This document shows positions 10,550 through 38,629 of a stretch of DNA of 64,000 nucleotides, one piece after another. Source of the stretch: an uncultured Actinomycetes bacterium. GTDB taxonomy: Bacteria; Actinomycetota; Thermoleophilia; Solirubrobacterales; 70-9. The position numbers and the translations under genes were made by a program. Under the pieces are notes generated by a model. The model worked only from the letters and a program-made list of their open reading frames with translations. It was not told where the DNA came from and did not search any database. The stretch's first letter is position 1; every line of letters starts with the position of its first letter. The DNA lies in the NCBI GenBank assembly GCA_937907435.1, contig CALCIA010000137.1:39212-103211 (forward strand), in the 5' to 3' direction.

Positions 10550-10594
10550 GGTGGGCGGATCGGACCCGGTCGACAAGGGCCCGATCCGCCCACC
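10550..10594. terminator. 14-bp perfect-stem hairpin 3' of the DUF305 gene
   Basis: GGTGGGCGGATCGG-N17-CCGATCCGCCCACC, 22 nt beyond the DUF305 stop. No U-tract. Confidence 0.35.
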
Positions 10595-10615: not shown

Positions 10616-11320
10616 CTACGCGGCTTCGGAGCCCGGAACGCCGCCGGCGGGAGAGGGCGAGCCGTACCACCCTTCGCGCCATTCGTTCATCTCTTCGATC
10701 TCCATCGTCTGAGCGGCGATGATCCCCTTGGCGAGTTCCTTCAGCTGCCCGTTTTCGCCGTCGGCTAGCTCGGCCTGGGCCATCAGGATCGCCCCTTGGT
10801 GGTGGGGGATCATCATGTCGATGAAAGCGCGATCGAACGGCTTTGCTCCTTCGAGACTCGACATGTCCATCGACATCCCCATCGAGCCCATCGGGATGCC
10901 GAGCACCTTGGCGTCTTCGCTCATGCTCGGGCCTTCTTCACCGCCGTGTTCCATCTCGGACATCCCTTCTTCGGACATCCCTTCCATGCTTTCGCCTTCG
11001 GATCCTCCGAGAGCGCCGATTTCTTCTGCGATCGGTTCCATCTCTTCGATCTCGCTGCTCTGCGTCTTGATGATGTCGTCCGCGAGCTGAGTGATCTGGG
11101 GGTGCTGACCCTCGGCCTGGGCCATTTCGGCCATCTCGACGGCCATTTCGTGGTGGGGGATCATCTCGGCGACGAAGGCCTGGTCGACCGTTCCGCCCGA
11201 GCCTCCTGAGCTGCTCGTGCTCGACGAGCTGCTGCCCCCGCCACAGGCGCTGAGCACCACGGTCAGGCCCAGCAGCGCGATCAACGCGACCAGGGTTATC
11301 GGCTTGTATCGAAACTTCAT
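10616..11320 (-). CDS. DUF305 lipoprotein with Met-rich insert
   Basis: Lipobox LSACGG. Two DUF305 repeats (FVAEMIPHHEMAVEMA; FIDMMIPHHQGAILMA). Central Met/Glu-rich segment GESMEGMSEEGMSEMEHGG...MGSMGMSMDMS. Confidence 0.85.
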   Translation of the reverse strand: MKFRYKPITLVALIALLGLTVVLSACGGGSSSSSTSSSGGSGGTVDQAFVAEMIPHHEMAVEMAEMAQAEGQHPQITQLADDIIKTQSSEIEEMEPIAEEIGALGGSEGESMEGMSEEGMSEMEHGGEEGPSMSEDAKVLGIPMGSMGMSMDMSSLEGAKPFDRAFIDMMIPHHQGAILMAQAELADGENGQLKELAKGIIAAQTMEIEEMNEWREGWYGSPSPAGGVPGSEAA

Positions 11321-11401
11321 CTGAGTCTCCTTTCGAGATTCCGTTCTGATAGGCGCCGGCAGGCGCCACCGAGCGGCGGAAAGCCGCTCGGGAACGGAAA
11401 C

Positions 11402-11761
11402 TCAGAGCCTCAGGACCTCCGAGATCGTCGGTCCCGCGCGGGACCGCGCCTCGAGCGCGGAGGCCGATACCAAACGAGCATTTAAGGAGCCAAGGTCGCG
11501 GTAGGGTCGGAGCCGCCGCTCCGCCCCGACCTCGGGGCAGATCGCAAGGCCGGCGGCGATGATGCCGGCGCAGACCATCGCGGCACCCATGGCCACCGCT
11601 GCGGCGCGGTCGTGGCCATGGTCCATCGGCATTGTCGAGCCATGATCCATCGGCATGATGCCGTGGTGGAGGGCCACCAGTAGCCCGAGGCAGACGATCA
11701 CGGCGGCCACCGTCCGGCTTGGACGGTAGGTCAATCTCTGTCTCAGGGAAAGTAGGCTCAA
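11402..11761 (-). CDS. small 2-TM His/Met-rich membrane protein (paralog 1 of 3)
   Basis: TM1 (AAVIVCLGLLVAL), then HHGIMPMDHGSTMPMDHGHD, then TM2 with Cys (AAMVCAGIIAAGLAIC). C-terminus ...SRAGPTISEVLRL is shared with the paralogs at 20294 and 25376. TTG start uncertain. Confidence 0.6.
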   Translation of the reverse strand: MSLLSLRQRLTYRPSRTVAAVIVCLGLLVALHHGIMPMDHGSTMPMDHGHDRAAAVAMGAAMVCAGIIAAGLAICPEVGAERRLRPYRDLGSLNARLVSASALEARSRAGPTISEVLRL

Positions 11762-12018
11762 TTGGGCGATCGGCTCGGTTGAAAACGGCAGATGGTCCTA
11801 TCTATAACTACGCTCCGGCCGGGCTCGCAGATCAGTGCCGGCTCACGGGTGGTCGGCGGACAAGCTCGGCGCCGAAACTGAAAGCTCTGCGAGACATCCT
11901 AGGTAAAGGTGCTGCACGCGAGGGGCGTGACTCCACGCCTGTTCCGCTGCCCGCAACTACTGAATGTCCCTCATTAGGTCCACGATCAGCGGTGGATCAG
12001 GGCGGCAGGCCGACAAAT

Positions 12019-12540
12019 CTATGGAGTCTCGAGTCCCGCGATGGTGACGGTGACGAGTCGTCCGACGGCGGCCCTTGATTTGAGCGCGCCGGAGGCGGCG
12101 AGCGCGTTGAGGCAGTAGGCCGCCGGCTCGTCAGGACCGACGTCGGTCGGGATCGCTCCGCTCTTGGCGGTCTCGGTGATCAGGTCACGAAAGGGCTCCT
12201 GGAGTTCACGTCCGGGGCCGGCAAGGCACGCGCCTCGGTGCGGTAGCGCGGTCAGGTCGGTGCCGTGGTCTTGGCGCCCGACCTCGTGGCGAATGAGGGC
12301 ATAGGCGCCGAGTACCGCCTTAGGCCGTCGAATGGGGTGGCGGTCTGCTCTCGGAGGGCAAGAAGCTGATCGAGGTGGGCGGCGACCTGGCGCTCGTGGC
12401 AGGCGAGGAGGATCGCCTCCACGTCGGCGACCCTGCGGGCGAGGCGTCTACCGAGGAGGAGTGACCCGCGCGGGAGTCTGTGTCGGTCTCCCACTGAGCA
12501 GCGCCCCCCGCGCCCGAAGAAAGGTGGACGGAGCGGCAAG
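12019..12540 (-). pseudogene. TetR-family regulator remnant (C-terminal ligand domain only, frameshifted)
   Basis: My translation of the minus strand gives ...AYALIRHEVGRQ...DLITETAKSGAIPTDVGPDEPAAYCLNALAASGALKSRAAVGRLVTVTIAGLETP*. This is a typical TetR C-terminus. The upstream part sits in another frame (track ORF 12252..12539). The HTH region is missing. Confidence 0.35.
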
Positions 12541-12558
12541 GCTCTCCTCGAGCCGGTT

Positions 12559-12858
12559 CTAGCCTCGCCGCATCAGCCGGCCGACGGCGGCCATCAACTC
12601 CTGCGTTTTTTCCGCCTGGTCGTCCTTGGCGGCGCCGATCACGCAGTGCTGAGCGTGATCATCGAGCAGTCCCAGCGCGACCTTGTCGAGGGCGGCCTGG
12701 ACGGCCGAGATCTGGGTGAGGACGTCGATGCAATAGCGCTCCTCCTCGACCATCCCCTCGATTCCACGGACCTGGCCCTCGATGCGACGGAGCCGTTTCA
12801 GCAGGTCGTCCTTGGTGGCGGAATATCCACGTGCCTCTGAAGTGCGGGAAGGGGTCAT
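12559..12858 (-). CDS. csoR: CsoR family copper-sensing repressor
   Basis: LLKRLRRIEGQVRGIEGMVEEERYCIDVLTQISAVQAAL...HAQHCV (C-H-C ligand set). Start set at ATG 12858 (MTPSRTS). Confidence 0.9.
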   Translation of the reverse strand: MTPSRTSEARGYSATKDDLLKRLRRIEGQVRGIEGMVEEERYCIDVLTQISAVQAALDKVALGLLDDHAQHCVIGAAKDDQAEKTQELMAAVGRLMRRG

Positions 12859-12872
12859 GGACGAATCATAGC

Positions 12873-12920
12873 TACCCCTGGGGGGTATACTCCCAAGACA
12901 CCCATACCCCCTAGGCGTAT
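12873..12920. promoter_or_regulatory. two CsoR-type GC-rich pseudopalindromic boxes in the csoR/copZ divergent region
   Basis: Box 1 TACCCCTGGGGGGTA (12873-12887). Box 2 ATACCCCCTAGGCGTAT (12904-12920). GAGGAG SD, then copZ ATG at 12937. Confidence 0.65.
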
Positions 12921-12936
12921 ACCAGAGGAGATTCCG

Positions 12937-13185
12937 ATGACCGACGACAGCACGAAGACCTATTCCGTCGAGGGGATGACCTGCGGGCACTGCGAGAGCT
13001 CGGTTCGCGAGGAGGTCGAGGAGTTGACGGGGGTGGAGTCCGCCCGGGTGGATCGCAGCACCGGGCTTCTGACCGTGCGCGGGGAGGGGATCGACGATGC
13101 GGCGGTCCGGGCAGCGGTGCAGGCGGCAGGCTACGCCGTCGCCGAAGCGACCGCTCCTACCGCCGGGGAGGCTGCGCGCCTATGA
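12937..13185 (+). CDS. copZ: HMA-domain copper chaperone
   Basis: 82 aa, [11 protein letters not shown] CxxC metal-binding motif. Overlaps the copA start (ATGA). Confidence 0.9.
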
Positions 13186-15497
13186 CGACGCATCTCGAGT
13201 TGCCCGTCGAGGGCATGACCTGCGCCTCCTGCGCCAACCGCATCGAGCGCAAATTGAACCGGCTCGAGGGTGTCGAGGCCACCGTCAACTACGCGACCGA
13301 GCGGGCGGCCGTGGAGTTCGATCCCGCCCGCGTTGTCCCCGCCGAACTTGTGCAGACGATCGAGGCTGCCGGTTACCGGGCGGCGGTTCCCGCCATGGCC
13401 GACGAAGGCGGCACGGCGGCGACGGCGTCAGGCGAGGCCGAGGATCCGACGGGGCCGTTGCGCCGCCGCCTGATCGGCGCCACGGCGCTGTCGGTTCCGC
13501 TCCTCCTGATCTCGATGATCCAGCCGCTCCAATTCGAAAACTGGCAGTGGCTGGCGCTGCAACTGGCGACCCCGGTGGTGTTGTGGGCCGGCTGGCCGTT
13601 CCACCGCGCCGCCTGGCAGAACCTGCGGCACGGCACCGCGACTATGGACACCCTCATCTCGGTCGGCACGCTGGCCGCCTGGGGCTGGTCGGTGGTCGCC
13701 CTGTTCTTCCTCGGGGCGGGGATGCCCGGGATGCGGATGGGCTTCGAAGTCGCCCTCAATCGCGATGCGGCGACCGACCACATCTACCTTGAGGCCGCCG
13801 CGGTGGTCACGACGCTGGTGCTCGCCGGTCGTTACTTCGAGGCACGCGCCAAGCGGCGTGCCGGCGCCGCCCTGCGAGCCCTGCTCGAGCTCGGCGCGAA
13901 GGACGTCGCCCTGCTCGATCCGGACGGCTCGGAGCGACGGGTCCCGATCGCCCAATTACAGAGCGGTGACCGATTCGTCGTGCGGCCCGGTGAGAAGGTC
14001 GCCACCGACGGGACCGTCGAGGACGGCGCCTCGGCCGTCGACGAGTCGTTGCTCACCGGCGAGTCCGTCCCGGTCGAGAAGCAGCCGGGCGACAAGGTCG
14101 TCGGCGCCTCGGTGAACGTGGGTGGCCGGCTCGTCGTGCGCGCCGAGAAGGTCGGCGCCGATACCGCCCTGGCGCAGATCGCCAGGCTGGTCCAGGATGC
14201 CCAGACCGGCAAGGCCCCCGTCCAGCGTCTGGCCGACCGCATCTCGGGCATCTTCGTGCCGATCATCCTCGCCCTCGCCCTGGCGACCCTTGGGTTCTGG
14301 TTGCTGACCGGGGCGAGCGCGGCGTTCGCCTTCAGTGCCGCCGTGTCGGTGCTGATCATCGCCTGTCCCTGCGCGCTCGGCCTCGCCACCCCCACGGCGC
14401 TCCTGGTCGGCACCGGTCGGGGGGCGCAGCTCGGGCTGCTGATCAAGGGCCCGGAGGTGCTCGAGTCGACGCGCAGGGTCGACACCATCGTCCTCGACAA
14501 GACCGGCACGGTGACCACGGGGCGGATGACGCTGCGAGGGATCGCGACCGACGGGGTCGCCGAGGACGAGGCACTGCGACTGGTCGGCGCCCTCGAGGCG
14601 GCCTCCGAGCACCCGGTCGCGGAGGCGATCTCGAAGGCTGCCGAGACCCGCCTCGGACGGTTGCCGGCGCCGCAGAGCTTCGGCAATCGCGAGGGCCTGG
14701 GGGTCGAGGGCGTGGTCGAGGGGCAAGAGCTCGTCGTAGGCAGGCCGTCGCTGTTGGCCGATCGAGGGATGCGGTTGACCGCCGAGCTCGAGCGCGCCCG
14801 CGGATCCGCCGAGGCGGGTGGCCAGACCGCGATCGTCGCGGCCTGGGGCGGACGACCGCGGGCCGTCTTCGCCGTGGCCGACACCCCGAAGCCGACGAGC
14901 GCGGAGGCCGTCGCCCGCCTCCGGACGCTCGGATTGAGGCCGATCCTGCTGACCGGGGACAACGAGACCACGGCCCGCTCGGTCGCGGCCGAGGTCGGGA
15001 TCGACGATGTGATCGCCGAGGTCCTGCCGGCCGACAAGGCAGACGTGGTCCGTCGGCTCCAGTCGGAGGGGCGGGTCGTCGCGATGGTCGGCGACGGCGT
15101 CAACGATGCTCCGGCACTCGCGCAGGCCGACCTCGGCCAGGCGATCGGCACGGGGACCGATGTCGCGATCGAGGCCTCGGATCTCACCATCGTCTCCGGC
15201 GACCTCCGTGGTGCCGCCGAGGCGATCCGTCTATCGCGCCGGACCCTGCGCACGATCAGAGGCAACCTCTTCTGGGCATTTGCCTACAACGTCGTGCTCG
15301 TCCCCGTGGCCATGCTCGGCTTCCTCAATCCCTTGTTCGCCGGCGCGGCGATGGCGTTCTCGAGCGTCTTCGTCGTCTCCAACTCGCTGCGCCTCAGGCG
15401 CTTCCGCGAGCTGCCGGGCGGGCCTTCGGGCGACCACGGCTCCGTGCCGGTGGCGTCCGTGCGGAGCGCGCCCGGGACGCCCGAAGGCGTCGCGTAG
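13182..15497 (+). CDS. copA: copper-exporting P1B-1 type ATPase
   Basis: N-terminal [46 protein letters not shown]. Confidence 0.95.
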
Positions 15498-15534
15498 GCT
15501 GTCGAATCGCTATCGCCCGCCCTCTCGATTGGTC

Positions 15535-15999
15535 CTACGTGTCGCCGGAGCTTCTGGGTCGCTTTCGCTCGGATCGAGGAGTGCTTTCACGGCGTGTCAC
15601 CTCGGGCCCAGCCGGTTCGACCTGACGCTTCTGACGATCGGCATCGGACACGCAGGCGCGGATACAGGTCAACAGCTCCTCGAAGACGAACGGCTTGGTC
15701 ATGTAGTCGGTGGCTCCGAGCTCGTCCGCTTCGACCCGGTCGGATTCATAGGGCCTCGCGGTCACCACGATCACCGGCAACGTCGGCTTCACACGCCGGA
15801 TCGCAGCCAGCACCTCGATCCCGTCGCGGCCGGGCAACATGCGGTCGAGGACGACAAGGTCGGTAGGAGAGGACAGCGCCAACCGCTCGGCGGTGGGGCC
15901 GTCGGCCGCGACGGTCACGCCGTAACCCTCCCCTTCGAGCCCTCGGGACAGAAAGTCCGCGATCCCTGGCTCATCCTCCGCGACCAAGATCTGCACCAT
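15535..15999 (-). CDS. stand-alone response-regulator receiver (REC) domain protein
   Basis: ILVAEDEP...DLVVLDRMLPGRDG...VIVVTA...KPF. The C-terminus is a charged tail with no DNA-binding domain. Confidence 0.85.
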   Translation of the reverse strand: MVQILVAEDEPGIADFLSRGLEGEGYGVTVAADGPTAERLALSSPTDLVVLDRMLPGRDGIEVLAAIRRVKPTLPVIVVTARPYESDRVEADELGATDYMTKPFVFEELLTCIRACVSDADRQKRQVEPAGPEVTRRESTPRSERKRPRSSGDT

Positions 16000-16025
16000 C
16001 CCAACACTACGTCAAATCGGCAATA

Positions 16026-16046
16026 ACTACGACATCACGTAGGAGT
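16026..16046. promoter_or_regulatory. palindromic operator site S1
   Basis: ACTACGACatcacGTAGGAGT. 27 nt upstream of the REC start, in the divergent region shared with the DUF1360 gene. Confidence 0.5.
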
Positions 16047-16145
16047 AGCATCGACGTCGTCGGTCATGCCTTCGTGGGACTGGTGTCCAGCGACCGATAG
16101 GCCTGGACGTCGAGGGACCTGGAAACACGATCTAGGAGGACACCA

Positions 16146-16673
16146 ATGCCGGATGGAGACGAGATGTCGCGGCCAGGCGAGTCGACCGCGGCGAGCCGCA
16201 CTGCCGACTACGCGGCGCTCGAGGCCGTATTCGGCGTCGGCATGGTCGGGCTCATCGCGTTGACTTCTCGCCGTGAGCGGGACGGGGGTCATCCGATCTC
16301 GACTGAAGAGCTTGTCCTGCTGGCCATGTCGACGTTCACTCTCGCGGACGTCTTGGCCAAAGAGAGGATCTCGACCTGGCTCCGTGAGCCTTTCGTCGAG
16401 GAGGGAACGGATCACAAGCCCGTTCGCCCCGAGGGCAGCGGGATGCGCTACGCGATCGGTGAGCTCCTCACCTGTACGCGGTGCGTAGGAGCCTGGAGCG
16501 CGATGGGCCTGGTCGCCCTTCGGACCGCCTCGCCGACGGCCGGGCGGGCCACGATGCGTGTCTTGGCATTGGCCGGCGTCAACGATTTCCTGCAGAGCGC
16601 CTTTCGTCTTCTGGCCGAGCGCACGAATCGGGCGGCGGTAGAAACGGAAGCCGCTCGCCGTGCCCTTCCTTAG
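16146..16673 (+). CDS. DUF1360-like membrane protein
   Basis: Hydrophobic helices plus [18 protein letters not shown] (CxxC-x-W motif typical of DUF1360). Confidence 0.6.
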
Positions 16674-19087
16674 GGTCCCGACGAGGAGTCTGCGCCCGCC
16701 GTCTCGGTAACCGCCGGGAGCCGCGCCCGCTTCAGGAGCAGGGCGTTGACGGCGACGATGAAGCTCGACCCCGACATCGACAGTGCCGCAATCTCCGGGC
16801 GTAGCTCGAGCCCCAGCCAGGGTTGGAACACCCCCGCCGCGATCGGCAGGGCGACCGAGTTGTAGCCGATCGCCCAGCCAAGGTTCTGGTGCATTTTCCG
16901 CAGCGTCGCGCGGCCGATCGCCAGCGCGACCGGGACGTCGAGCGGGTCGGACCGCATCAGGACGACATCGGCGGTCTCGATCGCGACGTCGGTGCCGGCG
17001 CCGATAGCGATCCCGAGGTCGGCCTGGGCCAGGGCGGGGGCGTCGTTGACGCCGTCGCCGACCATCGCCACCTTGCGGCCGCCCTGCTGCAGCTCGCTCA
17101 CCTGCGCGGCCTTGTCGCCCGGCAGCACCTCGGCGATCACCGTGTCGATCCCGAGGCCGTCGGCTATCCGCCTCGCCGTCGCCTCGTTGTCGCCGGTCAA
17201 CATCACGACCTGGACGCCGGCCTCGTGCAGTGCGGCGACCGCGGCGGCGGAGGTCTCGCGAGGTGCGTCGGCGATCCCGATCACCGCCGCACCGCGGCCG
17301 TCGATGCCGACGAGCACGGCGGTCCGACCATCGGCAGCCATTTCGTCGCGGCGCCCGGCGAGGGAGCCGAGGTCGATCCCACGCTGCTCCATCAGCCGGC
17401 GGTTGCCGACCGCGACCGAGCGTCCTTCCACGGTGGCGAGAGCTCCATGGCCGGGCACGTTCTCGAACCCGCGGGGCTCGGCGCCGTCGGCACCCGCAGC
17501 CTCGGCGCGGCGCACGATCGCCGCCGCCAGGGGGTGCTCGGAGGAGCGCTCGACCGCTGCGACGATCCGCAGCAGCTCGGCTTCCCGGAAGCCGTCGCCG
17601 ACGACTACGTCGGTGACCTCGGGTTCGCCCTTGGTGAGCGTCCCGGTCTTGTCCATCACGACGGTGTCGATCCGGGCCGACGTTTCGAGCGCGATCGCGT
17701 TCTTGAAGAGGACGCCGCGTTTGGCGCCGAGGCCGGAGCCGACCATGATCGCCGTCGGCGTCGCCAGTCCGAGCGCGTCGGGGCAGGTGATGACCACCAC
17801 GGTGATCGCGAAGAGGATCGCGGTCGAGGTCGGTTCGGAGCTGAAGATCGCCCAGGCGGCGAAGGTGGCGGCGCCGCCGATCAGGGCGACGAGCACCAGC
17901 CAGAAGGCGGCGCGGTCGGCGAGCTTCTGCCCGGGAGCCTTCGAGTTCTGCGCCTCCTGGACGAGCTTGACGATCTGCGCCAGCGCCGAGTCGGCGCCGA
18001 CCTTGGTCGCCCGCACCCGCAGCGTCCCGTTGGCGTTGATCGTCGCGCCGATCACCTCCGAGCCCACCCCCTTGTGGACGGGCAGGCTCTCCCCGGTCAC
18101 CATCGACTCGTCGACCTCACTCTCGCCGTCGGTGACGACGCCGTCGACGGCGATCTTCGACCCGGGTCTCACCACCAGCAGGTCGCCCACGGCCACCTGC
18201 TCGGTCGGGATCTCGACCTGCTCGCCGTCGCGGAGCACCAGCGCCTTCGAGGGCGCCAGGTCGAGCAGGGTGCGGATCGCGTCGTTGGCGCCGCCGCGGG
18301 CACGCATCTCGAACCAGTGGCCGAGCAGGACGAAGGCGGCGAGGACGCTGGCCGCCTCGTAGAAGACGTCGCCGCCGCCGGTGAGGGTGACGCCGACCGA
18401 GTAGAGCCAGCCGGCCCCGACCCCCACCGCGACCAAGACCATCATGTCCAGGGTGCGCGCGCGTAGCGCCCGCAGCGCGCCGACAAAGAAGATCGAGCAC
18501 GAGTAGAAGATCACCGGCAGGCTGAGGATCAGCGTGAAGACGTCCTCGCGCAGGCCGAACGGCGGCGCGACGTGGAAGCCGAAGACGTCGGCGCCGATCT
18601 TCGACCACAACAGGATCGGCACCGAGAATACGGCGGCGACCAGGAAGCGGTTGCGCATGTCGGCGACCATCGAGGCCATCGACATCTCGCCGTGACCGCC
18701 GTGGCCCATGACCTCGTCGGGCGTGCCCCGCATCTGACCCTCCGGCTCTTGCCGCTCGGCCGGGGCGTGCACGTGCCCAGGCACCATCGCCGCGGCCAGA
18801 GGCGCAGGCGGATCGGGCTCCATCAGCGGATCGCAGACGTGCTCGGGCACCGACTGGCCTGCGCAGTGGTAGCCGCACTCGACGATCCAGTCGCGCAACT
18901 CCTCGACCGAGGCCTGCCCGGGGTCGTAGGTGACCGTGGCGGTCTGGGCGACCGGATTGGCCTCGACCTCGAGGACCCCCGGCCGTCGCCCGACCGCCGA
19001 CTCGACCACCGTCTTCTCCGAGGCTCGCAGCATGCCGCTCGCCTCGAGCACGACGGTCTCGGTCCCGCCGTCGGTCGGCGGACTCAT
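16670..19087 (-). CDS. CopB-like (P1B-3-like) heavy-metal P-type ATPase with CPD motif
   Basis: Degenerate HMA without CxxC ([10 protein letters not shown]). His/Met-rich stretch [38 protein letters not shown] (codon GAC verified on the DNA), [17 protein letters not shown]. Start set at ATG 19087. Confidence 0.9.
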
Positions 19088-19224
19088 GTAACGGCTCCAC
19101 GATCCACGCGGCTCACGTCCCCGAGCATCGCAGCCGTTTCGCTTCGCGGCATCGCCCCATGGTCCCGAGGCCGTCCCCATGGGAGGCTTGCGGCGGCGTG
19201 GCCCATGGACGAGACAAAAGCTCC

Positions 19225-19245
19225 ATAACTACATTATGTAGGAGC
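19225..19245. promoter_or_regulatory. palindromic operator site S2
   Basis: ATAACTACattatGTAGGAGC. 17 nt are identical to S16. On the minus strand CATAAT forms a -10-like box and an ATG lies 2 nt after the GTAG half. Confidence 0.7.
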
Positions 19246-19293
19246 ACGGGGCGCCGACCACCCTGGCGCCCCGTGCTAGTGGTCACTCGTCCG

Positions 19294-20181
19294 CTATTCC
19301 ACTTCGACGGTGAAGGGCGCGGTATGGACTGCGCCTTCGGCCCTGAACTGCAGGAAGAGGCGGTAGGTCCCGGCGGTCGGGAACTCCGCGTCGAAGGTGA
19401 TCGTCCCCGCCCGTCGGTCGTCGGCGACTGGGTGGATGTGGGAGTAGGCGAGGTCCGGCTTCCGCAGGGCGACGAGGTGCCCATAGGTACCGAGGTATGG
19501 CTGCAGGTCGGTCACCGGCCTACCCGAGCGCATCACCGCGAACGTCAACTGCTCCTCGCGGTCGGACTGAAGCGCACCGTGGGCGGACATCACCGAGTAG
19601 CCGTCGACGCTCGACATCGAGCTCGGCGCCGGCAACGGCACCCGCTTCACCTTGCCCGGCACCGTGATGTCGACACCGAGGGGATAGCGCTTGCCCCCGG
19701 TCGTGAAGTCGGCGATCACGCGGTAGCGGCCCGGCTGCGCGAGCGTGACGGGGACGACGAAGTCGCCGTCTGGCTTCAACACCGGATGAAGGTGCTGATA
19801 GCCGGTGAAGTCGTCACGGACGACGATCAGGTGCATCAATTTGGTCTGGTCGCGTTCGAAGCTGGTGACCGGCTTGGCTTCCTCGTCCAGCACCCGCAGG
19901 GTCCAGGTCTCCGGTTGCCCTGCCGCCGGGGTCGTCGCGTCGAGCTCCAGTCTTAGCCCGTCGGCGCTTGCCCTGGTGCCGTCGGCACCGGGTGCAAGCG
20001 GCGCCATGCCCTGCATCTGCATCCCCGTCATCGACTTTTGGCCCTGCATCGCTTCTCCGGGTGCCATCGACATGCCACCCATCGCCGATCCACCCGATGC
20101 GCTCCTGAGCGACGACACGAGCAGTACCGCGATGACCAGCGCGGCACCCGCGGCGACGAGAGCGATCTTTTTAAAGTTCAT
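19294..20181 (-). CDS. secreted Met-rich protein with two Ig-like (FixH/YtkA-like) putative metal-binding domains
   Basis: Signal anchor, then a Met-rich linker (GGSAMGGMSMAPGEAMQGQKSMTGMQMQGM). Two repeats follow, each with MHLIVVRDDFTGYQHLHP / GHLVALRKPDLAYSHIHP. GGAGG SD before ATG 20181. Confidence 0.75.
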   Translation of the reverse strand: MNFKKIALVAAGAALVIAVLLVSSLRSASGGSAMGGMSMAPGEAMQGQKSMTGMQMQGMAPLAPGADGTRASADGLRLELDATTPAAGQPETWTLRVLDEEAKPVTSFERDQTKLMHLIVVRDDFTGYQHLHPVLKPDGDFVVPVTLAQPGRYRVIADFTTGGKRYPLGVDITVPGKVKRVPLPAPSSMSSVDGYSVMSAHGALQSDREEQLTFAVMRSGRPVTDLQPYLGTYGHLVALRKPDLAYSHIHPVADDRRAGTITFDAEFPTAGTYRLFLQFRAEGAVHTAPFTVEVE

Positions 20182-20293
20182 CAGTACCTCCATCTATCGC
20201 GTTCGGCACGCCCGCACCTCGATACGGGCGCTCTTCGCCGGCCGGTGAGGGCGGCGGGACTGCGCGCGGCTCGACCGAGCCGCGCGGAAGCGA

Positions 20294-20590
20294 TCAACGT
20301 CTGAGGACGACCATGCCGGGACGGGGGCCGGCGCGTGCCGGGACGGACGCGACGGGAAGGGTGAGAGCGGAGAGGATCGGGCGCACGTACCGGGCGAAAA
20401 GGGGTCGCGGCCTCGCCCTGGCGGCCAGGACCGCGAAGCCCGCGGCACCGCCGAGCACGGCGAGGCATATCGCGGCCATTCCCATCCCGTGCCCGTCTTC
20501 GGGCATGCCGTGGTGAACGAGCGTGACGCCACCGAGGAAGACGAGCACCAGGAGCAGCGCCAGTCGGCTTCTACTGCCGCGCGAGCTCAC
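20294..20590 (-). CDS. small 2-TM His/Met-rich membrane protein (paralog 2 of 3)
   Basis: LALLLVLVFLGGVTLVHHGMPEDGHGMGMAAICLAVLGGAAGFAVL...ARAGPRPGMVVLRR. GTG at 20590 lies one base after the upstream stop. Confidence 0.6.
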   Translation of the reverse strand: MSSRGSRSRLALLLVLVFLGGVTLVHHGMPEDGHGMGMAAICLAVLGGAAGFAVLAARARPRPLFARYVRPILSALTLPVASVPARAGPRPGMVVLRR

Positions 20591-20591
20591 G

Positions 20592-21122
20592 TCAGGCCGC
20601 TGAGTCGGGAGAGACCGGGATGGCGCAGGCACGTCGCGCGCCACGCAGGCGGACGAACAGCGCGGCGCCGGCCATCATCAGCCCCGCCGCGCCGAGGAAG
20701 GGCTGCATCGGGGCAAAGTAGTTGAAGGCGCCGGAGACGCCGAGCAGCGCGACCACGAGCTTGTTGCAGACCGGACAGCCGACGGCGAGCAGGCCGAGGA
20801 ATCCGCTGCCGGCGCTCGCGGCCGCGATCCGGTCGCGGGTCTCACGCGGCAGCACGTAGGTAGCCAGCAGGATCCCGGTCATGATGCTGCTACCGACCCA
20901 GAAGAAATAGTTGCCGGTTTCGGCGGGGATCATCCGCACGAACCAGGGATTGGGGACGATGTCGGTCGGGATCCCGAGCGCAAGCGCGACCAGGGCGATG
21001 CCGAGGATGGCGGTGATCAGAAAGCGTGGGCCCAGCAGCGAGAACAGCGTGGGCCGCTCATCGAATGGTTCCGTGGGTGTGGTGAAGGCTTCCATCGTGC
21101 GGGAAAGCGGGTCTGTGACCAC
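20592..21122 (-). CDS. 4-TM membrane protein with intramembrane CPVC motif
   Basis: 176 aa with hydrophobic helices. GLLAVGCPVCNKLVVALLGVSG. Start ambiguous (GTG 21122 or ATG 21095). Confidence 0.6.
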   Translation of the reverse strand: MVTDPLSRTMEAFTTPTEPFDERPTLFSLLGPRFLITAILGIALVALALGIPTDIVPNPWFVRMIPAETGNYFFWVGSSIMTGILLATYVLPRETRDRIAAASAGSGFLGLLAVGCPVCNKLVVALLGVSGAFNYFAPMQPFLGAAGLMMAGAALFVRLRGARRACAIPVSPDSAA

Positions 21123-21142
21123 ATCCTACAGACCGTAGGAAG
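21122..21142. promoter_or_regulatory. palindromic operator site S3
   Basis: CATCCTACagaccGTAGGAAG (perfect TCCTAC-N5-GTAGGA). Abuts the start of the CPVC membrane protein gene. Confidence 0.7.
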
Positions 21143-21171
21143 CTGGTGGAGGCGAGCCGCTCGCCTGGCCG

Positions 21172-22134
21172 TCAGCCCTGGCAGGAGTGCGAGCCGCCCG
21201 CCGCAGCGACCGAGGCGACCCCGTCCCGGGCAAGGGCCGGGGTCGCGGCCGCCGTCAGGACGACCAGCGCGACAAGGCTGACGACGAGGGCACGGCCTGA
21301 GAGCTCCACCCAGGCCCGGGGGCGGGCTTTGGTGCGGTCGAGCAGGAAGCGCAGCCGCGCAGCCGTTCCGACCCCGGCAAGGCCGGCAAGCGCCGGACTG
21401 GTCGGCGGTTGGCCTGCGGCGGCTTTGCAGATCGCGCTCGCCAGGGCGACCGGATCGCCGACCCGGCCCACCGCGTACTCGTCGGCGTCGCGCTCGAGGC
21501 AGAACCGGAGCCTTCCGAGCGCGTCGTTGCTGCCGGGAAGCACCCGCGCCAGGGCGAAGGCCACGCTTCCCGCCAAGGCCAGGTAGGGGTGTCGGTGGGC
21601 GATGTGGCCGCGCTCGTGCTCGAGCCCGGCCGCCAGCTCCCCTTCGTCGAGCTTCGCCAGGGCACCGGTGGAGACGATGATCCTGGCGTCGCGGATGCCG
21701 GCGGCGGCGACGACGACATCGGGGCCGCCGATGATCAGGCTCTGGCGGGGTCCCTCGCCGAGGCAGTTGCGGTGAAGCCAACGACGCACGGTGCGGGCGG
21801 TGCGCCAGACGGCGAACACGGCCCAGATCAGCGAGAGGCCGAGGACGAGACCTGGGAGCAGGGTGGCAGCGTCCCCGAGCCGATGGCCCGAGAAGCCCAG
21901 GTGGGTCGCGAAGAAGGGGAGGACCGCGTGGATGCACCAGTGGGTGGTGAGTTGGAAGAGCTGGGTCGCCGGAAGGTAGAGGACGAGGACCAGGGCGCCG
22001 ACGACGACAAGAAGGGCGCGCAGGACGAGCACCGATAACCAGATCGCGGCACCCGTCAGCGGCGTGAGCGCGTCGCGGGGAAGAAGATAGGGAACGGCCG
22101 TCCCGAGCAGGAGCAGGCCGGCGAGGACGATCAT
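21172..22134 (-). CDS. M56 family (BlaR1/MecR1-like) membrane metalloprotease, no sensor domain (pair 1)
   Basis: N-terminal TM helices, HERGHIAHRHP (HExxH), 320 aa with no penicillin-binding domain. Start overlaps the BlaI-like stop (ATGA). Confidence 0.85.
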   Translation of the reverse strand: MIVLAGLLLLGTAVPYLLPRDALTPLTGAAIWLSVLVLRALLVVVGALVLVLYLPATQLFQLTTHWCIHAVLPFFATHLGFSGHRLGDAATLLPGLVLGLSLIWAVFAVWRTARTVRRWLHRNCLGEGPRQSLIIGGPDVVVAAAGIRDARIIVSTGALAKLDEGELAAGLEHERGHIAHRHPYLALAGSVAFALARVLPGSNDALGRLRFCLERDADEYAVGRVGDPVALASAICKAAAGQPPTSPALAGLAGVGTAARLRFLLDRTKARPRAWVELSGRALVVSLVALVVLTAAATPALARDGVASVAAAGGSHSCQG

Positions 22135-22535
22135 CTCGACTTCTTGCCGCCGCGCCTCGCCGCCACCTCGCGGGCGAGCGCCTCGATCTCGTCGAGCTCA
22201 CCCGGGTCCATGTCACCGACGAGGTGGGCCAGCGCCGTACGGCGGGCGCCGTCGGAGGCCGACGCCAAGGTCTCCTGCACCGAGCGCGAGTAGTAGTCGC
22301 CCTCGCTGACCTTCGTCGCGTAGAAGATCGCCTTGCCCTGGCGCTGGCGGACCAGCAGGCCACGCTCGGCAAGGCGGTTGAGCACGGTCTGCACGGTCGT
22401 ATAGGCGCCGCGTTGGCGGTCGGGAAGCTCGTTGCGGACATCGTCGACGCTGGCCGCCCGACCGAGCCGCCAGAGCGCCCTCATCACCTCGATCTGCAAC
22501 TCGCCCTGTAGCTGGACTGCGGTTTCGCGGGCCAT
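22131..22535 (-). CDS. BlaI/MecI/CopY family winged-helix repressor (pair 1)
   Basis: LQIEVMRALWRLGRAASVDDVRNEL...AYTTVQTVLNRLAERGLLVRQRQGKAIFYATKV. Start set at ATG 22535. Confidence 0.85.
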   Translation of the reverse strand: MARETAVQLQGELQIEVMRALWRLGRAASVDDVRNELPDRQRGAYTTVQTVLNRLAERGLLVRQRQGKAIFYATKVSEGDYYSRSVQETLASASDGARRTALAHLVGDMDPGELDEIEALAREVAARRGGKKSR

Positions 22536-22541
22536 CGTCAG

Positions 22542-22562
22542 AAGCCTACATGGCGTCGGGAC
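22542..22562. promoter_or_regulatory. palindromic operator site S4 (autoregulatory position)
   Basis: AAGCCTACatggcGTCGGGAC. On the minus strand it reads GTAGGCTTctgacgATG, i.e. TAGGCT -10-like box 7 nt before the BlaI-like start. Confidence 0.5.
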
Positions 22563-22639
22563 GCCTTCCTCCTGACGCCATGTCGTCGGCCGCAACACAG
22601 GTTGCAGGTGTCAGCCGCGGAACCCGTCACCCAAGGTAG

Positions 22640-22660
22640 GTTCCTACAGTGTGTAGGGAT
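22640..22660. promoter_or_regulatory. palindromic operator site S5
   Basis: GTTCCTACagtgtGTAGGGAT. 66 nt upstream of the M23/cyclase operon. Confidence 0.7.
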
Positions 22661-22725
22661 TGAGCCACCGGGTGTGCCGTTGTCGTCCGGGCAGCGGCAT
22701 ACCCGGTGGCTTGATCGTCCCTCCG

Positions 22726-23943
22726 ATGCCGCCCGAAAACGACAGACGAACGCCGGCCCTGGCGGCGATCGCGTTCGCCCTCCTGCTCGGCGGCGCGGTG
22801 ATCGTCTCGGCAATCGCCTATTCGCCTGTCGCCAGCGCGACCACCCGGTCCCGGCTCGAAAGCGCGCAGGCCAAGCTCGAAAAGACCGAAGAACGCGAAG
22901 GGGTCCTGACCACCACCCTGTCCCGCTTCGACGACCGGATCGCGGGCCTGGAACGACGGACCGCGGCGTTGCGCGGACGCGAGGCGGCGGTCGGTGAAGA
23001 GCTCGCGGCAAGACAGGCGGAACTGGAAGGCGCCGAAGCCGCCGTCGGACAGGCAAGGCACCACCTCGAGGTGGTGCGCGGCCGGCTGAAGCGGGCGCTG
23101 ATCGTCCTGCGGGACCGGCTCGTGGCGATCTATGAGAACGGGAGCCCGGACATCGTCAGCATCCTGGTCTCCTCCGGCGACATGTCGGAACTGGCCGCCA
23201 CGAGCGAATACGTCTCCCGGATCCAGAGCGCCGACGAAGCGGTCGTCGACCGCGTCCGCTCGCTGCGTGATCAGGCGAGCCGCACGACGCTGCGGCTGGA
23301 GGGCGCAGCGACACAGATCGAAGCCGCGCGCGACCAGATCGCCGCGCGTGAGCACGAACTTGCCCAGGCGCGGGCATCCGTCGAGGCCCGTCAAGGGGAA
23401 CTGGTCGCCACCCGCGCCGACCGTCAGAGCACGCTCGATCAGGTGGAAGTCGAGGCCGACCACTTCGGCGCCAACGTGCGGGCGCTGCAACAGAAGATCG
23501 CCGAAGAAATCACCCAGGCATCCTCGTCGGTGCCATTGCCCGCGGGACCGGCGGCGGGCGGGATCAGCTCCAGCGGCCTGATCTGGCCGGTGGAAGGGGT
23601 GATCACCTCCGGGTTCGGGCCGCGCTGGGGCAGCTTCCACCCCGGCATCGACATCGGGGTGCCGGAAGGGACGCCGATCAAGGCCGCGGCGTCGGGCACG
23701 GTCGTCCTCCTGCAATCGGAGGCCGAAAGCGGCGGCTACGGCAACTACACCTGTATCGACCACGGCGGGGGGCTCTCGACCTGCTACGCCCACCAGACGG
23801 AATTCGCGACCTCGCTGGGCGCAAGCGTGAGCCAGGGTGAAGTGATCGGATATGTCGGCAACACCGGCTTCAGCACCGGCCCACACCTTCATTTCGAGGT
23901 CCGCGTCGAAGGCGAACCGCAAGACCCGCTCGGCTACCTCTAG
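22726..23943 (+). CDS. coiled-coil M23 family peptidoglycan metalloendopeptidase (paralog of 2004..3170)
   Basis: Signal anchor, coiled coil, WPVEGVITSGFGPRWGSFHPGIDIG...GNYTCIDH...GNTGFSTGPHLHFEV. Start set at ATG 22726. Confidence 0.9.
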   Translation: MPPENDRRTPALAAIAFALLLGGAVIVSAIAYSPVASATTRSRLESAQAKLEKTEEREGVLTTTLSRFDDRIAGLERRTAALRGREAAVGEELAARQAELEGAEAAVGQARHHLEVVRGRLKRALIVLRDRLVAIYENGSPDIVSILVSSGDMSELAATSEYVSRIQSADEAVVDRVRSLRDQASRTTLRLEGAATQIEAARDQIAAREHELAQARASVEARQGELVATRADRQSTLDQVEVEADHFGANVRALQQKIAEEITQASSSVPLPAGPAAGGISSSGLIWPVEGVITSGFGPRWGSFHPGIDIGVPEGTPIKAAASGTVVLLQSEAESGGYGNYTCIDHGGGLSTCYAHQTEFATSLGASVSQGEVIGYVGNTGFSTGPHLHFEVRVEGEPQDPLGYL

Positions 23944-23948
23944 TCACC

Positions 23949-24623
23949 GTGACCGATCAAACGTTCATCTTCGCCGACATGTCGGGCTTCGCGGCGTTGA
24001 CCGAGGCGCACGGGGACGAGGCGGCGGCCGACCTGGCCGCCGACTTCTCCGCCGCGGTACGGCCGCGGCTGGAAAGGCGCGAGGCCGAGGAGGTGAAGAG
24101 CATCGGCGATGCACTGATGATCCGCGGCGAGGACGCGGGCGAATCGATCGGCCTCGGCCTGGAAATCGTCCACGAGGTCGGCGGCCAGCACCGTTTCCCG
24201 ACGATCCGAGTCGGTATGCATACCGGGCCCGCGACCGAGCGAGAGGGCGATTGGTTCGGCTCCACCGTCAATCTTGCCGCGCGGATCGCCGGGGAGGCCG
24301 CCGGTGGCGAGGTGCTGGTATCGGAGTCCACGCGCTCGGCCCTGGCGCGCCCGGAGCGGTTCAACTTCCGCGAGCGCGGGCGTGTCCATCTACGGAACAT
24401 CTCCGAGCCGGCCCTGCTGTTCTCGGTGCTACGGCGGGGTCTGCTGGCGACCGGCGATCTGCCCCTCGATCCGGTCTGCCGCATGGCCATCGATCCGGAG
24501 GGCTCGGCCGGCTCGCTCGAGCACCGCGGCACGGCTTACATCTTCTGTTCGCTCGCCTGCGCGGAGCGCTTCGCCGCCGACCCCGAGCTCTTCGCCGGTA
24601 GGCCCGGCGCCGAGCACGGCTGA
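23949..24623 (+). CDS. class III adenylate/guanylate cyclase domain fused to a C-terminal YHS (TRASH-type) metal-binding domain
   Basis: FIFADMSGFAALTE, KSIGDALM, VGMHTGPA, TVNLAARI (cyclase motifs). Then DPVCRMAID...GTAYIFCSLACAERFAADPELF (YHS). Confidence 0.85.
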   Translation: MTDQTFIFADMSGFAALTEAHGDEAAADLAADFSAAVRPRLERREAEEVKSIGDALMIRGEDAGESIGLGLEIVHEVGGQHRFPTIRVGMHTGPATEREGDWFGSTVNLAARIAGEAAGGEVLVSESTRSALARPERFNFRERGRVHLRNISEPALLFSVLRRGLLATGDLPLDPVCRMAIDPEGSAGSLEHRGTAYIFCSLACAERFAADPELFAGRPGAEHG

Positions 24624-24647
24624 GCCCACGTCTCGGCTTCGAGAGTC

Positions 24648-24679
24648 GTGGCCGGCCCCGATTGGGCGAGGCCGGCCAC
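24648..24679. terminator. 10-bp-stem hairpin between convergent genes
   Basis: GTGGCCGGCC-N12-GGCCGGCCAC between the cyclase-YHS gene (+) and DUF305 gene (-). Confidence 0.4.
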
Positions 24680-24686
24680 GCGCGGG

Positions 24687-25298
24687 TCAACCCTTCGGGA
24701 CGCCACCCGCCGGCGACGGCGCGCCGTACCACTCGGTGCGCCACGTGTTCATCTCGCGGATCTCCTTCGCCTGGGCGCGGACGATCCCCCTGGCGAGGCT
24801 CCGCAACTGCCCGTCGGCGCCGCGCTTCAGCTCGACACGGGCCATCCGGATCGCCCCCTGATGATGGGGGATCATCATGTCGATGAACTCTCGGTCGAAG
24901 GGTTTCGCGCCGTCGAGGTCGCCCATTTCCATATCCATGCCGGCCTGCTTCATCGTCAGGCCGAGGGTGTCGAGGCCTTCCATCATCGCCATGTGATCGC
25001 CGGTGCTGACGGGCTTCACGCCGAGGCTCCTGGCGATCTTCTTCAGCTGGACGATCTCTTCAGACTGTGCTTTGACGATCGCCCTCGCGGTCGACTTGAT
25101 CTGGCCGTGTTCGGCCTGATCGATCGCCATCCGGGCCATTTCGATGGCCATCTCGTGGTGCATCGGCATCTCGCTCACGAATGCCTTGTCGGTCGCATTG
25201 GCGGCGGGGGCGGCGGAAGCGCTAGTGGCTCCGAGGCCGGCCAGGACGGCCAGGGCCAGGACGGCCGCGAGCAGGGCCCGTCTCTTGATCTGCTTCAT
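24687..25298 (-). CDS. DUF305 secreted protein (copy 2)
   Basis: Signal peptide. FVSEMPMHHEMAIEMA and FIDMMIPHHQGAIRMA repeats. Tail WYGAPSPAGGVPKG resembles that of copy 1. Confidence 0.85.
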   Translation of the reverse strand: MKQIKRRALLAAVLALAVLAGLGATSASAAPAANATDKAFVSEMPMHHEMAIEMARMAIDQAEHGQIKSTARAIVKAQSEEIVQLKKIARSLGVKPVSTGDHMAMMEGLDTLGLTMKQAGMDMEMGDLDGAKPFDREFIDMMIPHHQGAIRMARVELKRGADGQLRSLARGIVRAQAKEIREMNTWRTEWYGAPSPAGGVPKG

Positions 25299-25375
25299 CG
25301 GTGGATCTCCTTTGTCTTGAGTCGGTGCAGGCGAGTGCTACCCCGGTCAGGCCGGGGTAGCCGTGACGCCGTCGA

Positions 25376-25774
25376 TCAAGTTCGGAGAACCGAGAGCCGT
25401 AGGTAGAGGGGTCCCGCTCTCGCGCGAGGACTCGGCGAGGGCGGGACCCTGGGCAGCCGCCGCGGGGCACGCGACAGCGAGGGTCGAGGCCGGCCCGGCC
25501 GGTGTGTCCGCGGACGGGCGACGAGGAGGGCGACACCGCCGATGACGGCAAGGCAGATGCTCCCTGCCATGCCGTCCATTCCCTTGGGCTCGACGTGGTG
25601 CGTGACGATCAGGCCGCCGAGTGCGAGCACGGCCAGCAGCAGAAGAAGGCGCCGGCGCGTACCGCGCGGCGCCGCGCGTAGCCGTAGGACCACGCCTGCA
25701 TCGCCGGCCGTCGGGGAGTGGTGCGCCTGGCCTTGCATCCTCCATATAGATAGCAACGTCGCACCTCCGGTCAT
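25376..25774 (-). CDS. small 2-TM His-rich membrane protein (paralog 3 of 3)
   Basis: LLLLLAVLALGGLIVTHHVEPKGMDGMAGSICLAVIGGVALLV...ARAGPLYLRLSVLRT. Start ambiguous (ATG 25774 or 25738). Confidence 0.55.
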   Translation of the reverse strand: MTGGATLLSIWRMQGQAHHSPTAGDAGVVLRLRAAPRGTRRRLLLLLAVLALGGLIVTHHVEPKGMDGMAGSICLAVIGGVALLVARPRTHRPGRPRPSLSRAPRRLPRVPPSPSPRARAGPLYLRLSVLRT

Positions 25775-25794
25775 ATCCTACGTCGCGTAGGATG
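25774..25794. promoter_or_regulatory. palindromic operator site S6
   Basis: TATCCTACgtcgcGTAGGATG (perfect TCCTAC-N5-GTAGGA) in a 25-nt divergent gap. TAGGAT lies 6 nt before GTG 25800. Confidence 0.7.
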
Positions 25795-36772: not shown

Positions 36773-37041
36773 TAGAGCCGGCCCGGGCAATGGCTGGGAG
36801 GCAAGCCGACAGTCCGTCCGAGATCCGCGACCACCTCGAACCGAGTGTTGTCGGCCGGCGCGACGTCGCCATGCCGATTCGGTCGGGAGCGAAGCGCATG
36901 GGCCGTGCCGCCTCCGGCTGGACGCTCCAGAAGAAGGTCGAGTGCCCGTCCTTTCGTCCGGTCGTGCCTACGGATGAGCGTAGGCACAAGCGCGTCGGGG
37001 GCGCCTGTTCAGCACATCCTGGGCGCTGCTACGCGCCTGCT

Positions 37042-38622: not shown

Positions 38623-38629
38623 CTCCTTC

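Follow-up and report, generated by a model that had tools for sequence, protein, structure and literature searches.

In a 64,000-nucleotide stretch of DNA (hereafter the window) from an uncultured Actinomycetes bacterium (GTDB lineage Bacteria; Actinomycetota; Thermoleophilia; Solirubrobacterales; 70-9; GenBank assembly GCA_937907435.1, contig CALCIA010000137.1, positions 39,212 to 103,211 of the forward strand), three small open reading frames (ORFs), here called A, B and C, each lie directly upstream of a gene for an exported protein of copper-binding type. We propose that these ORFs are probably leader genes encoding arrest peptides, which would link copper, the membrane insertion of their second transmembrane segment (TM2), or both, to the expression of the exported copper protein encoded downstream. 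RAPP-like arrest leaders upstream of copper genes have already been described; the family to which A, B and C belong, which carries the core RAGP, is new.

A family of small two-TM proteins

The preliminary description of this DNA had pointed to three paralogous small ORFs, and exactly these three match the family hidden Markov model (HMM) in the window. ORF A (11402-11761, minus strand) encodes a 119-residue, two-TM His/Met/Cys protein of the RAGP family that scores 76 bits against the HMM and has homologues P0008, P0011 and P0033. ORF B (20294-20590, minus strand) also matches the HMM and, from the start called in its homologues, encodes 98 residues with 97-98% identity to P0001, a protein labelled hypothetical from a Solirubrobacterales metagenome-assembled genome (MAG). 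ORF C (25376-25774, minus strand; 114 bits; homologue P0009) has an ambiguous start, and its product is 132 residues long from the ATG at 25774 or 120 from Met13 at 25738, as in homologue P0026. B and C are 42% identical (BLASTP E=1e-6); the pairwise similarity of A to B and C is weaker, yet A reaches the above score against the family profile.

How large the family appears depends on the search. A word-indexed search with B alone returned close relatives only, a profile of A, B and C returned ~60 proteins, and an exhaustive HMM search returned 686 clusters at 50% identity (E<=1e-3; 332 at E<=1e-10), nearly all of them full-length matches of ~105-115 amino acids. Pattern scans of genomes and metagenomes, for which the query was short, confirmed just 2 and 14 loci. 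The family is found in Actinomycetota, chiefly in Solirubrobacterales-like MAGs, and the window proteins themselves share 97-100% identity with hypothetical proteins from MAGs that carry the label Solirubrobacterales bacterium 70-9 or Actinomycetota bacterium. Scans of A, B and C against Pfam and NCBIfam assigned no family, the sources annotate the relatives as hypothetical, and Pfam scans of 50 and of 139 family members gave scattered sub-threshold matches of TM type only.

The architecture first described for A, B and C, namely two TM segments with His/Met residues, a Cys, a basic linker and a conserved C-terminus, is kept across ~200 homologues. A basic, Arg-rich N-terminus leads into TM1, which ends in (H/A)H and is followed by a short Met/His loop, TM2 with its Cys (ICLAV), a variable Arg/Pro-rich linker, the sequence A-R-A-G-P and a short tail ending L-x-V-(L/F)-R-(R/L). 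The AlphaFold2 (AF2) model has two TM helices and a short third helix, with the ARAGP tail as low-confidence coil (predicted local distance difference test score 69 overall); in B the TM helices span residues 3-27 and 37-58, and hydropathy gives the corresponding segments in A, B and C. We considered TM1 as a cleaved signal peptide that would leave an N-terminal x-H-H resembling an amino-terminal copper and nickel (ATCUN) site, as read from the VAxHH consensus, but set this reading aside; the register is inconsistent in the AH subfamily. One relative of C, P0026 of MAG JST59, is frameshifted after TM2 and has lost RAGP and the tail as it reads into another frame; this may reflect a misassembly or a leader gene that has been knocked out naturally.

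An arrest-type motif at a conserved distance from TM2

ARAGP...VLR had been taken in the preliminary description for a generic conserved C-terminus, which missed that RAGP is the ribosome-arrest motif of SecM and YwcI. In translation the motif lies at 11429-11440 in A, where it forms the putative arrest site (P site occupied by Gly, A site by Pro) and is followed by an 8-residue tail, at 20324-20335 in B, followed by a 9-residue tail whose codons end AGA CGT TGA, and at 25409-25420 in C, followed by the 10-residue tail LYLRLSVLRT (all on the minus strand). Among 202 family sequences the core is RAGP in 178 and mostly another RxxP variant in the remainder (RASP, RGSP, RAAP, RGGP and others), the R and P are invariant, and a RAPP or RGPP core does not occur. 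Outside the metal motif, these two residues are the only invariant ones in the family, and the RAGP codons vary synonymously, so that selection acts on the peptide. The individual residues are known to matter, as Arg is reported to be irreplaceable in SecM arrest (PMC12992588) and Pro of RAGP is needed in YwcI (PMC10987492). Furthermore, RAGP sustains arrest within ApdP, ApcA and SecM contexts, and RAPP-like motifs are depleted from proteomes, with a bias of 0.25 for RAGP in Actinomycetota (PMC12992588).

The distances around the motif are also kept. The Cys of TM2 lies 42-51 residues before the Arg, with a mode of 46, despite the unconserved sequence of the linker, and the hydropathy-defined end of TM2 lies 31-34 residues before the Pro in A, B and C, with TM1 more distant. 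A ribosome stalled here would therefore hold the metal motif and TM2 just past the exit tunnel. All four features by which arrest peptides have been searched for in silico (Fujiwara et al. 2024, PMC10987492) are present in the family: a small upstream ORF of unassigned function on the same strand as the downstream gene, an N-terminal signal or TM segment (seen in the AF2 helices and in hydropathy), a spacer of more than 30 residues between this localisation signal and the arrest site, and a conserved R-x-x-P core near the C-terminus.

The tail that follows Pro, 8-11 residues long in 175 of 180 sequences, is under selection at the protein level, with V at position -4 in 186 of 189 sequences, R at -2 in 178 of 189, and synonymous changes in the codons. 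Its end is in addition biased in codon choice. The penultimate and last Arg codons are rare ones, with CGA/AGA at 12 of 22 against a background of 8% (p=2e-8) and CGT at 12 of 15 (p=2e-11), and Leu at -3 is encoded by CTY in 15 of 18 (p=0.003), so that selection acts there at the nucleotide level too. Indeed, the nucleotide motif ...CTY CGA CGT TGA TC is kept at the ORF end (as at 20294-20305 and 25376-25387) where protein identity is ~40%, and the stop codon is TGA in 23 of the 24 distinct family ORF ends listed.

Linkage to genes for exported copper proteins

The metal-type exported protein that had been noted after each hairpin is DUF305/CopM in modules 1 and 3 and a Met-rich YtkA-like protein in module 2. 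Downstream of A, and its proposed target, is a lipoprotein gene with a Met-rich insert (10616-11320, minus strand; Pfam DUF305 E=2.7e-38; NCBIfam CopM; PDB 5FEJ E=2.6e-30), and downstream of C is the gene for an exported protein, likewise its proposed target (24687-25298, minus strand; Pfam DUF305 E=3e-36; NCBIfam CopM). With DUF305 scores of 131.8 and 125.2 bits (cut-off 27) and CopM scores of 120.7 and 110.4 bits (cut-off 90), both are by sequence members of the DUF305/CopM metallochaperone family, and both match the solved CopM structure 5FEJ. The proposed target of B (19294-20193, minus strand) is an exported protein with a Met-rich N-terminus and two HxHP motifs that has a sub-threshold YtkA match and more than 2700 homologues, many of which carry PF13115 YtkA; a sequence search of the PDB gave no match for it.

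Co-occurrence with DUF305 or Met-rich exported proteins had been named in advance as a test, and the linkage in the fetched loci is very strong. All seven divergent members with inspected neighbourhoods have a DUF305 gene as their immediate downstream neighbour on that strand, 67-104 nucleotides (nt) away. Over all fetched loci, DUF305 is downstream in 27 of 32 family HMM hits, with 4 hits lacking enough downstream DNA, and every member with enough of it is followed by a same-strand gene across a spacer of 67-118 nt. The exceptions with a YtkA-like gene downstream are B and the loci L031 and L032. At L031 another family member precedes a YtkA-like homologue of 19294-20193, while L032 repeats module 2 gene for gene (BlaI, M48, 4-TM protein, small ORF, 118-nt spacer, Met-rich protein, ATPase); L033 in turn shows the synteny of module 1 (TetR, small ORF, DUF305). 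Finally, a second member in locus L004 (10682-11005, minus strand) heads genes for a 303-residue CcdA-like membrane protein that has CC motifs, for a redoxin and for a glutaredoxin-like protein (8707-10554), an operon that resembles the thioredoxin-type targets of RAPP leader genes (PMC12992588). As the same small-ORF cassette precedes DUF305, YtkA-like and CcdA-like targets, it is portable between unrelated targets.

Structured spacers between the small ORFs and their proposed targets

The GC hairpins that had been reported just after each small-ORF stop are all present as written, at 11369-11391 for A (9 base pairs, bp), 20263-20286 for B (10 bp) and 25337-25361 for C (10 bp). The window contains 12 perfect hairpins with a stem of at least 9 bp, three of which start within ~15 nt of the stops of A, B and C, a coincidence for which simple arithmetic on the window count gives ~0.02 expected by chance. 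The spacers as a whole are structured (all minus strand). That of module 1 (11321-11401, z = -6.5) contains the hairpins 11369-11391 and 11352-11367 and a basal stem by the stop codon and the Shine-Dalgarno (SD) sequence, that of module 2 (20194-20293, z = -2.2) contains three hairpins, the first at 20263-20286, and that of module 3 (25299-25375, z = -3.5) contains the hairpin 25337-25361. Against dinucleotide shuffles, 19 non-redundant spacers are more stable than expected (mean z = -2.4; 12 of 19 below -2), with structure beginning 0-10 nt past the stop. Minimum free energy (MFE) and alifold predictions usually close the spacer with a basal stem that pairs the last codons and the stop with the sequence just 5' of the SD.

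Spacers of close relatives differ by wobble-preserving changes and one compensatory pair in the stems, while the loops vary. Between module 1 and L033 the stems are kept, the loops changed and the one compensatory pair is found; between module 2 and L032 the loops are changed and the stems kept; and between module 3 and the 95%-identical L007 the difference is confined to the loop. Hairpin sequences are unrelated between subfamilies, and an Rfam search of the spacers found nothing. No U-tract follows the three hairpins or those of the homologous loci, and a terminator scan reports none of the three; lacking U-tracts, they do not have the form of canonical intrinsic (Rho-independent) terminators.

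Relation to DUF6153 leaders and other arrest peptides

The closest known relatives are the DUF6153 (PF19650) leaders described by Fujiwara et al. (EMBO J 2025, PMC12992588). Of these, SLIV_16130 of S. lividans (118 amino acids, RAPP from R105) lies upstream of copM and stalls ribosomes in vitro and in vivo, in an Arg-dependent manner as seen by beta-galactosidase (16 units for the wild type, 127 for R105A) (PMC12992588). Our literature search found no paper that links DUF305 with arrest in its main text. In the supplement of Fujiwara et al. (2025), 'DUF305 domain-containing protein' ranks among the main classes found downstream of small RAPP/RGPP ORFs, across hundreds of genomes; the RAPP ORFs upstream of DUF305 comprise 654 with a signal peptide, 32 with signal peptide and TM segment, 18 with a TM segment and 6 globular, and these RAPP/RGPP ORFs carry the NCBI label DUF6153 and have a dominant motif-to-C-terminus distance of -11 (PMC12992588).

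The window family resembles DUF6153 in several respects. Both are small actinobacterial proteins with an N-terminal hydrophobic segment ending (M)H(H/G), a His/Met/Cys-rich middle, which in some DUF6153 members includes a second hydrophobic segment of VCLAVL type, and an R-A/G-x-P that precedes the C-terminus by ~10 residues and leaves a tail whose end reads L..LR[ILVR]. By eye, DUF6153 examples share the architecture '...AMHH...HVCLAVL...GRAPP...ILRV'. The C-terminal module of DUF6153 is present in the window family with the core RAGP, and aligning the last 15 family columns with a DUF6153 sample in hhalign gave 81% probability (E=1.3e-5; 58% with a second alignment). The genomic position agrees as well: the window family, like DUF6153, is found directly upstream of DUF305 genes, at 77-124 nt for DUF6153 by the supplement coordinates (PMC12992588). 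The differences are that the core is RAGP, as in SecM, instead of RAPP/RGPP, that the window family consistently has two TM segments with a single conserved Cys inside TM2, that its Cys-to-Arg distance is ~46 against ~39 in four DUF6153 examples, and that it occurs chiefly in Solirubrobacterales-like MAGs. On these comparisons we regard the window proteins as a sister group of DUF6153 with a RAGP-type core. The group falls outside the Pfam model, and it is also absent from the published RAPP/RGPP census, which could not find it since its core is RAGP and never RAPP or RGPP. The suggestion in the preliminary description that the small proteins might correspond to an uncharacterised actinobacterial DUF came close in that their C-terminal module matches DUF6153, and fell short in that the Pfam DUF6153 model does not recognise them.

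A functional parallel is CruR (Bordetella pertussis Bp2923, DUF2946), a copper-responsive upstream ORF with a CXXC motif and a C-terminal RAPP (Roy et al., mBio 2022, PMC9426467). In CruR the distance from C93 to R139 is 46 and this spacing matters for regulation; copper relieves arrest and so allows Rho termination before the copper-uptake operon (PMC9426467). The window family shares with CruR a copper-linked upstream ORF whose exported or TM product carries a metal-binding motif at a conserved distance from a C-terminal R-A-x-P, together with a long GC-rich spacer and association with varied copper-homeostasis operons. It differs in that CruR is proteobacterial and has a CXXC motif and a RAPP three residues from its end, whereas the window family has a single Cys and an 8-11 residue tail. 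As the window targets are copper-defence or copper-binding proteins and that of CruR is uptake, the regulatory sign or the wiring must differ between the two.

Among arrest peptides with an identical RAGP core, B. subtilis YwcI (100 amino acids, RAGP at 88-91, 9-residue tail) stalls when Gly90 occupies the P site (PMC10987492), and the YwcI-sacT system resembles the window family in its length of ~100 residues and in the position of RAGP 9 residues from the end. The SecM-secA system of E. coli has the same core, and the SecM variants RGSP, RASP and RADP parallel the variants of the window family (PMC10987492). Neither SecM nor YwcI shows homology with the window family outside the motif, and SecM differs further in that the ribosome stalled on it directly opens the stem in which the secA SD is hidden, whereas the putative stall site in the window is too far from the hairpins for this (9-11 codons plus 0-10 nt). 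MifM-yidC2 of B. subtilis is likewise among the closest known systems; MifM uses another arrest sequence, lacks a metal motif and has the insertase itself as its target.

Proposed mechanism

The family, its motif and spacings, the linkage, the structured spacers and the nucleotide-level selection at the ORF end are observed; stalling, copper as the signal and the effect on the target are inferred. We propose the following model for the small ORFs as arrest-peptide leaders. TM1 would bring the translating ribosome to the membrane, and peptide-bond formation would stall at R-A-G-P, the P site holding Gly-tRNA and the A site Pro-tRNA. At this point the His-His/Met loop and the Cys-bearing TM2 may just have left the exit tunnel, with the Cys ~46 residues from the Arg, and the duration of the stall may be set by copper binding to the His, Met and Cys residues, by insertion of TM2 into the membrane, or by both. 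As the putative stall site lies 9-11 codons before the stop, and a very stable spacer structure has its base 0-10 nt from that stop, the folding of the RNA would depend on whether the ribosome pauses at RAGP or continues to the stop. This folding would in turn set the output of the downstream protein, DUF305/CopM or, in module 2, the YtkA-like protein.

Two wirings are conceivable. Arrest may switch the target on, in that the transcript would be protected against Rho during a pause of RNA polymerase at the hairpins; we take CruR and TnaC to be precedents for such an arrangement. Alternatively, release may switch the target on, in that a ribosome arriving at the stop codon would open the stem and couple translation of the two genes. 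A ribosome at RAG|P covers about three codons past the Pro, as known from footprint and toeprint geometry, and the tail, the stop and the hairpins are therefore free of the stalled ribosome, whereas a ribosome at the stop codon would intrude into the spacer structure. The conserved tail and the rare codons speak in favour of ribosome passage over the ORF end as part of the mechanism, and we lean slightly towards the release-on wiring.

In its most specific form, the release-on wiring would make the small ORF a copper-gated arrest peptide with inverted wiring, in which a copper-defence gene is switched on by the released and not by the stalled ribosome. Copper binding to the emerged His/Met/Cys segment, or a blocked insertion of TM2, would alter the wait at RAGP, and the released ribosome would be slowed by the CGA/AGA-CGT codons as it runs into a stop that forms the base of the structure beside the SD. 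The 8-11 codon tail, also found in DUF6153, would then act as a functional 'run-up' element, and we know of no described arrest system that has one. We regard this complete scheme as rather improbable.

Several observations weigh against an arrest-leader role or leave parts of it unexplained. The hairpins would lie beyond the reach of a ribosome stalled at RAG|P, and a pure arrest model leaves unexplained the protein-level selection on the 8-11 residue tail, which is common to DUF6153; this conserved tail is the most intriguing and hitherto unexplained part of the finding. The Pfam DUF6153 model matches none of A, B and C up to E<=10 and gives 2 hits among 139 members (best E=0.009), whereas control DUF6153 proteins score 32-116 bits. 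Homology with CruR/DUF2946 (PF11162) is likewise rejected, with matches in 2 of 50 members at E=0.28, an hhalign probability of 0.3% and nothing in common beyond RAxP. Sequestration of the SD by the leader 3' end, which MFE pictures had made look convincing, is not supported either, as the SD pairing probability is 0.57 against 0.60 in 63 control genes, and masking the mRNA in simulation as a stalled or terminating ribosome would produced no significant change. A test of cognate against non-cognate duplexes between tail and SD gave only p=0.02 with a mean z = -1.1, a hint at most, and the signature of a Rho site is weak, with a slight C>G bias from -90 to +30 around RAGP. Finally, the loci used for these statistics are not phylogenetically independent.

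Less likely alternatives: membrane partners or independent transcription units

The small proteins could instead be stable two-TM proteins that work with the exported protein, by relaying or accepting Cu at the membrane surface, by anchoring, or as a sensor that signals through the conserved cytoplasmic tail, RAGP being only a Gly-Pro turn before an amphipathic C-terminal strand. The preliminary description favoured such a dedicated membrane partner, and the conservation of TM1, of the HH/Met loop, which the positive-inside rule puts outside the cell, and of the TM2 Cys fits with it, as does the tight pairing with DUF305. The protein-level selection on the tail likewise argues that a full-length product is made and that its C-terminus matters. 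On the other hand, the same cassette also precedes the unrelated YtkA-like protein and the CcdA-like protein with redoxin. Its most conserved segment, the C-terminus, is predicted to be unstructured, its spacing is held constant across a linker of variable sequence, which marks a ruler and not a fold, and R and P of RxxP are its only invariant residues beyond the metal motif. Furthermore, SLIV_16130, the only DUF6153-class protein upstream of copM to have been studied experimentally, behaves as an arrest peptide (PMC12992588), and a partner role leaves the structured 67-118 nt spacer and the rare codons at the stop unaccounted for. A role as partner, relay or anchor thus seems unlikely and fits less well than a leader acting in cis by stalling, with which it would nevertheless be compatible, while that of a sensor is plausible; the earlier observations are confirmed, and the interpretation given to them is partly supported.

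It is also conceivable that each small ORF and the gene after it are transcribed separately, their adjacency reflecting no more than a shared copper regulon, and that the hairpins are factor-independent terminators, 3'-end stabilisers or DNA operators. Their position directly after the stops is terminator-like, the downstream genes carry good SD sequences of their own, and within hairpin C the sequence TACCCCGG-N5-CCGGGGTA is similar to the CsoR-type site TACCCCTGGGGGGTA at 12873-12887. The lack of any U-tract and the empty consensus terminator scan at the hairpins speak against terminators, and the hairpin sequences are unrelated between loci and so do not form a common operator. Order, strand and the 67-118 nt spacer length are kept among members with ~30-40% identity, and the basal stem ties the stop codon to the SD-proximal region, which likewise speak against separate units. 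We therefore consider this explanation very unlikely.

Implications

To our knowledge, control by copper through nascent-chain stalling has been shown functionally only for CruR, in a proteobacterial uptake operon, and for the actinobacterial leaders upstream of copM/DUF305 the prior evidence concerns stalling itself only. To these leaders the window adds a large unannotated sister family of RAGP type, invisible to the published RAPP/RGPP searches, and a natural experiment in which three paralogous cassettes in one copper island serve two kinds of target. The 8-11 codon tail with its rare terminal Arg codons beside a structured spacer could reveal how a stall is converted into output. Such ORFs are better annotated as candidate regulatory leader genes than as hypothetical membrane proteins, and expression of DUF305/CopM in Actinomycetota may be controlled after the start of transcription.

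The surrounding copper island

The small ORFs lie in a copper island, within a window of ~70% GC, that contains three P-type ATPases, CsoR, CopZ, a BlaI-like repressor with an M48 protease, a cyclase-YHS fusion and the two DUF305 genes. Module 2 begins with a BlaI/CopY-like repressor (22131-22598, minus strand; Penicillinase_R E=7e-24; CopY_TcrY below its cut-off) that lacks the C-terminal Cys motif, and this gene order is repeated in L006 and L032. A BlaR1-like M48 membrane metalloprotease without a sensor domain follows (21172-22134, minus strand; Pfam Peptidase_M48), with relatives of 53-54% identity beside family members in L001 and L006. The 4-TM protein with an intramembrane CPVC motif, which had been noticed ahead of module 2, is real (20592-21122, minus strand; no Pfam hit), and its stop (20592-20594) is one base from the start of ORF B (20590). 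It recurs upstream of family members as CP(V/I)C homologues in L001 (5450-5953, 68% identity) and L032 (2496-2999), and in L032 its stop abuts the small ORF.

Several features of possible regulatory function were found near the modules. A perfect CsoR/RicR-type palindrome, TACCCCTGGGGGGTA, lies at 12873-12887 in the overlap of a CsoR-like gene (12559-12990, minus strand) and copZ-copA (12937-15497, plus strand); this pattern occurs 2 times in the window against 0.02 expected, and the palindrome is probably a CsoR operator for the copZA operon. The half-sites TACCCCGG-N5-CCGGGGTA within hairpin C (25339-25359) are CsoR-like with a wider spacing, and hairpin C might also be a DNA operator before the second DUF305 gene. 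Just upstream of ORF C the palindrome ATCCTACG-N3-CGTAGGAT (25775-25793, of the pattern CCTACG-N-CGTAGG) is a candidate operator. Palindromes of the form CCTACG-N3-6-CGTAGG occur 3 times in the window (25777-25791, 36967-36984 and 45269-45283) against 0.04 expected, the first being the one upstream of ORF C, the second lying near a DsbD_TM/CcdA-like gene (37042-37779, minus strand) and the third directly upstream of ccmE-ccmF (45303-47934, plus strand); they could be the operator of a regulator that links copper and cytochrome c maturation genes. Upstream of ORF A an apparent C-terminal remnant of a TetR-family gene is found at ~12060-12250 (minus strand), and since L033 has an intact TetR gene (1653-2243) before its small ORF, the transcriptional regulator of module 1 appears to have decayed in the window.

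In the P-type ATPase at 16670-19180 (minus strand), which has a His/Met-rich N-terminal extension, the ion-binding helix reads TCPD, where CPC or CPH is usual for copper pumps. The gene at 23949-24623 (plus strand) joins an adenylate/guanylate cyclase domain to a YHS metal-binding domain, an arrangement conserved beside the module in L001 (4671-5333), which could provide a metal-responsive cyclic-nucleotide signal. Two full-length cyclic di-AMP riboswitches (RF00379) are present at 1820-1973 and 38618-38775, both on the minus strand, with scores of 73 and 77 bits.

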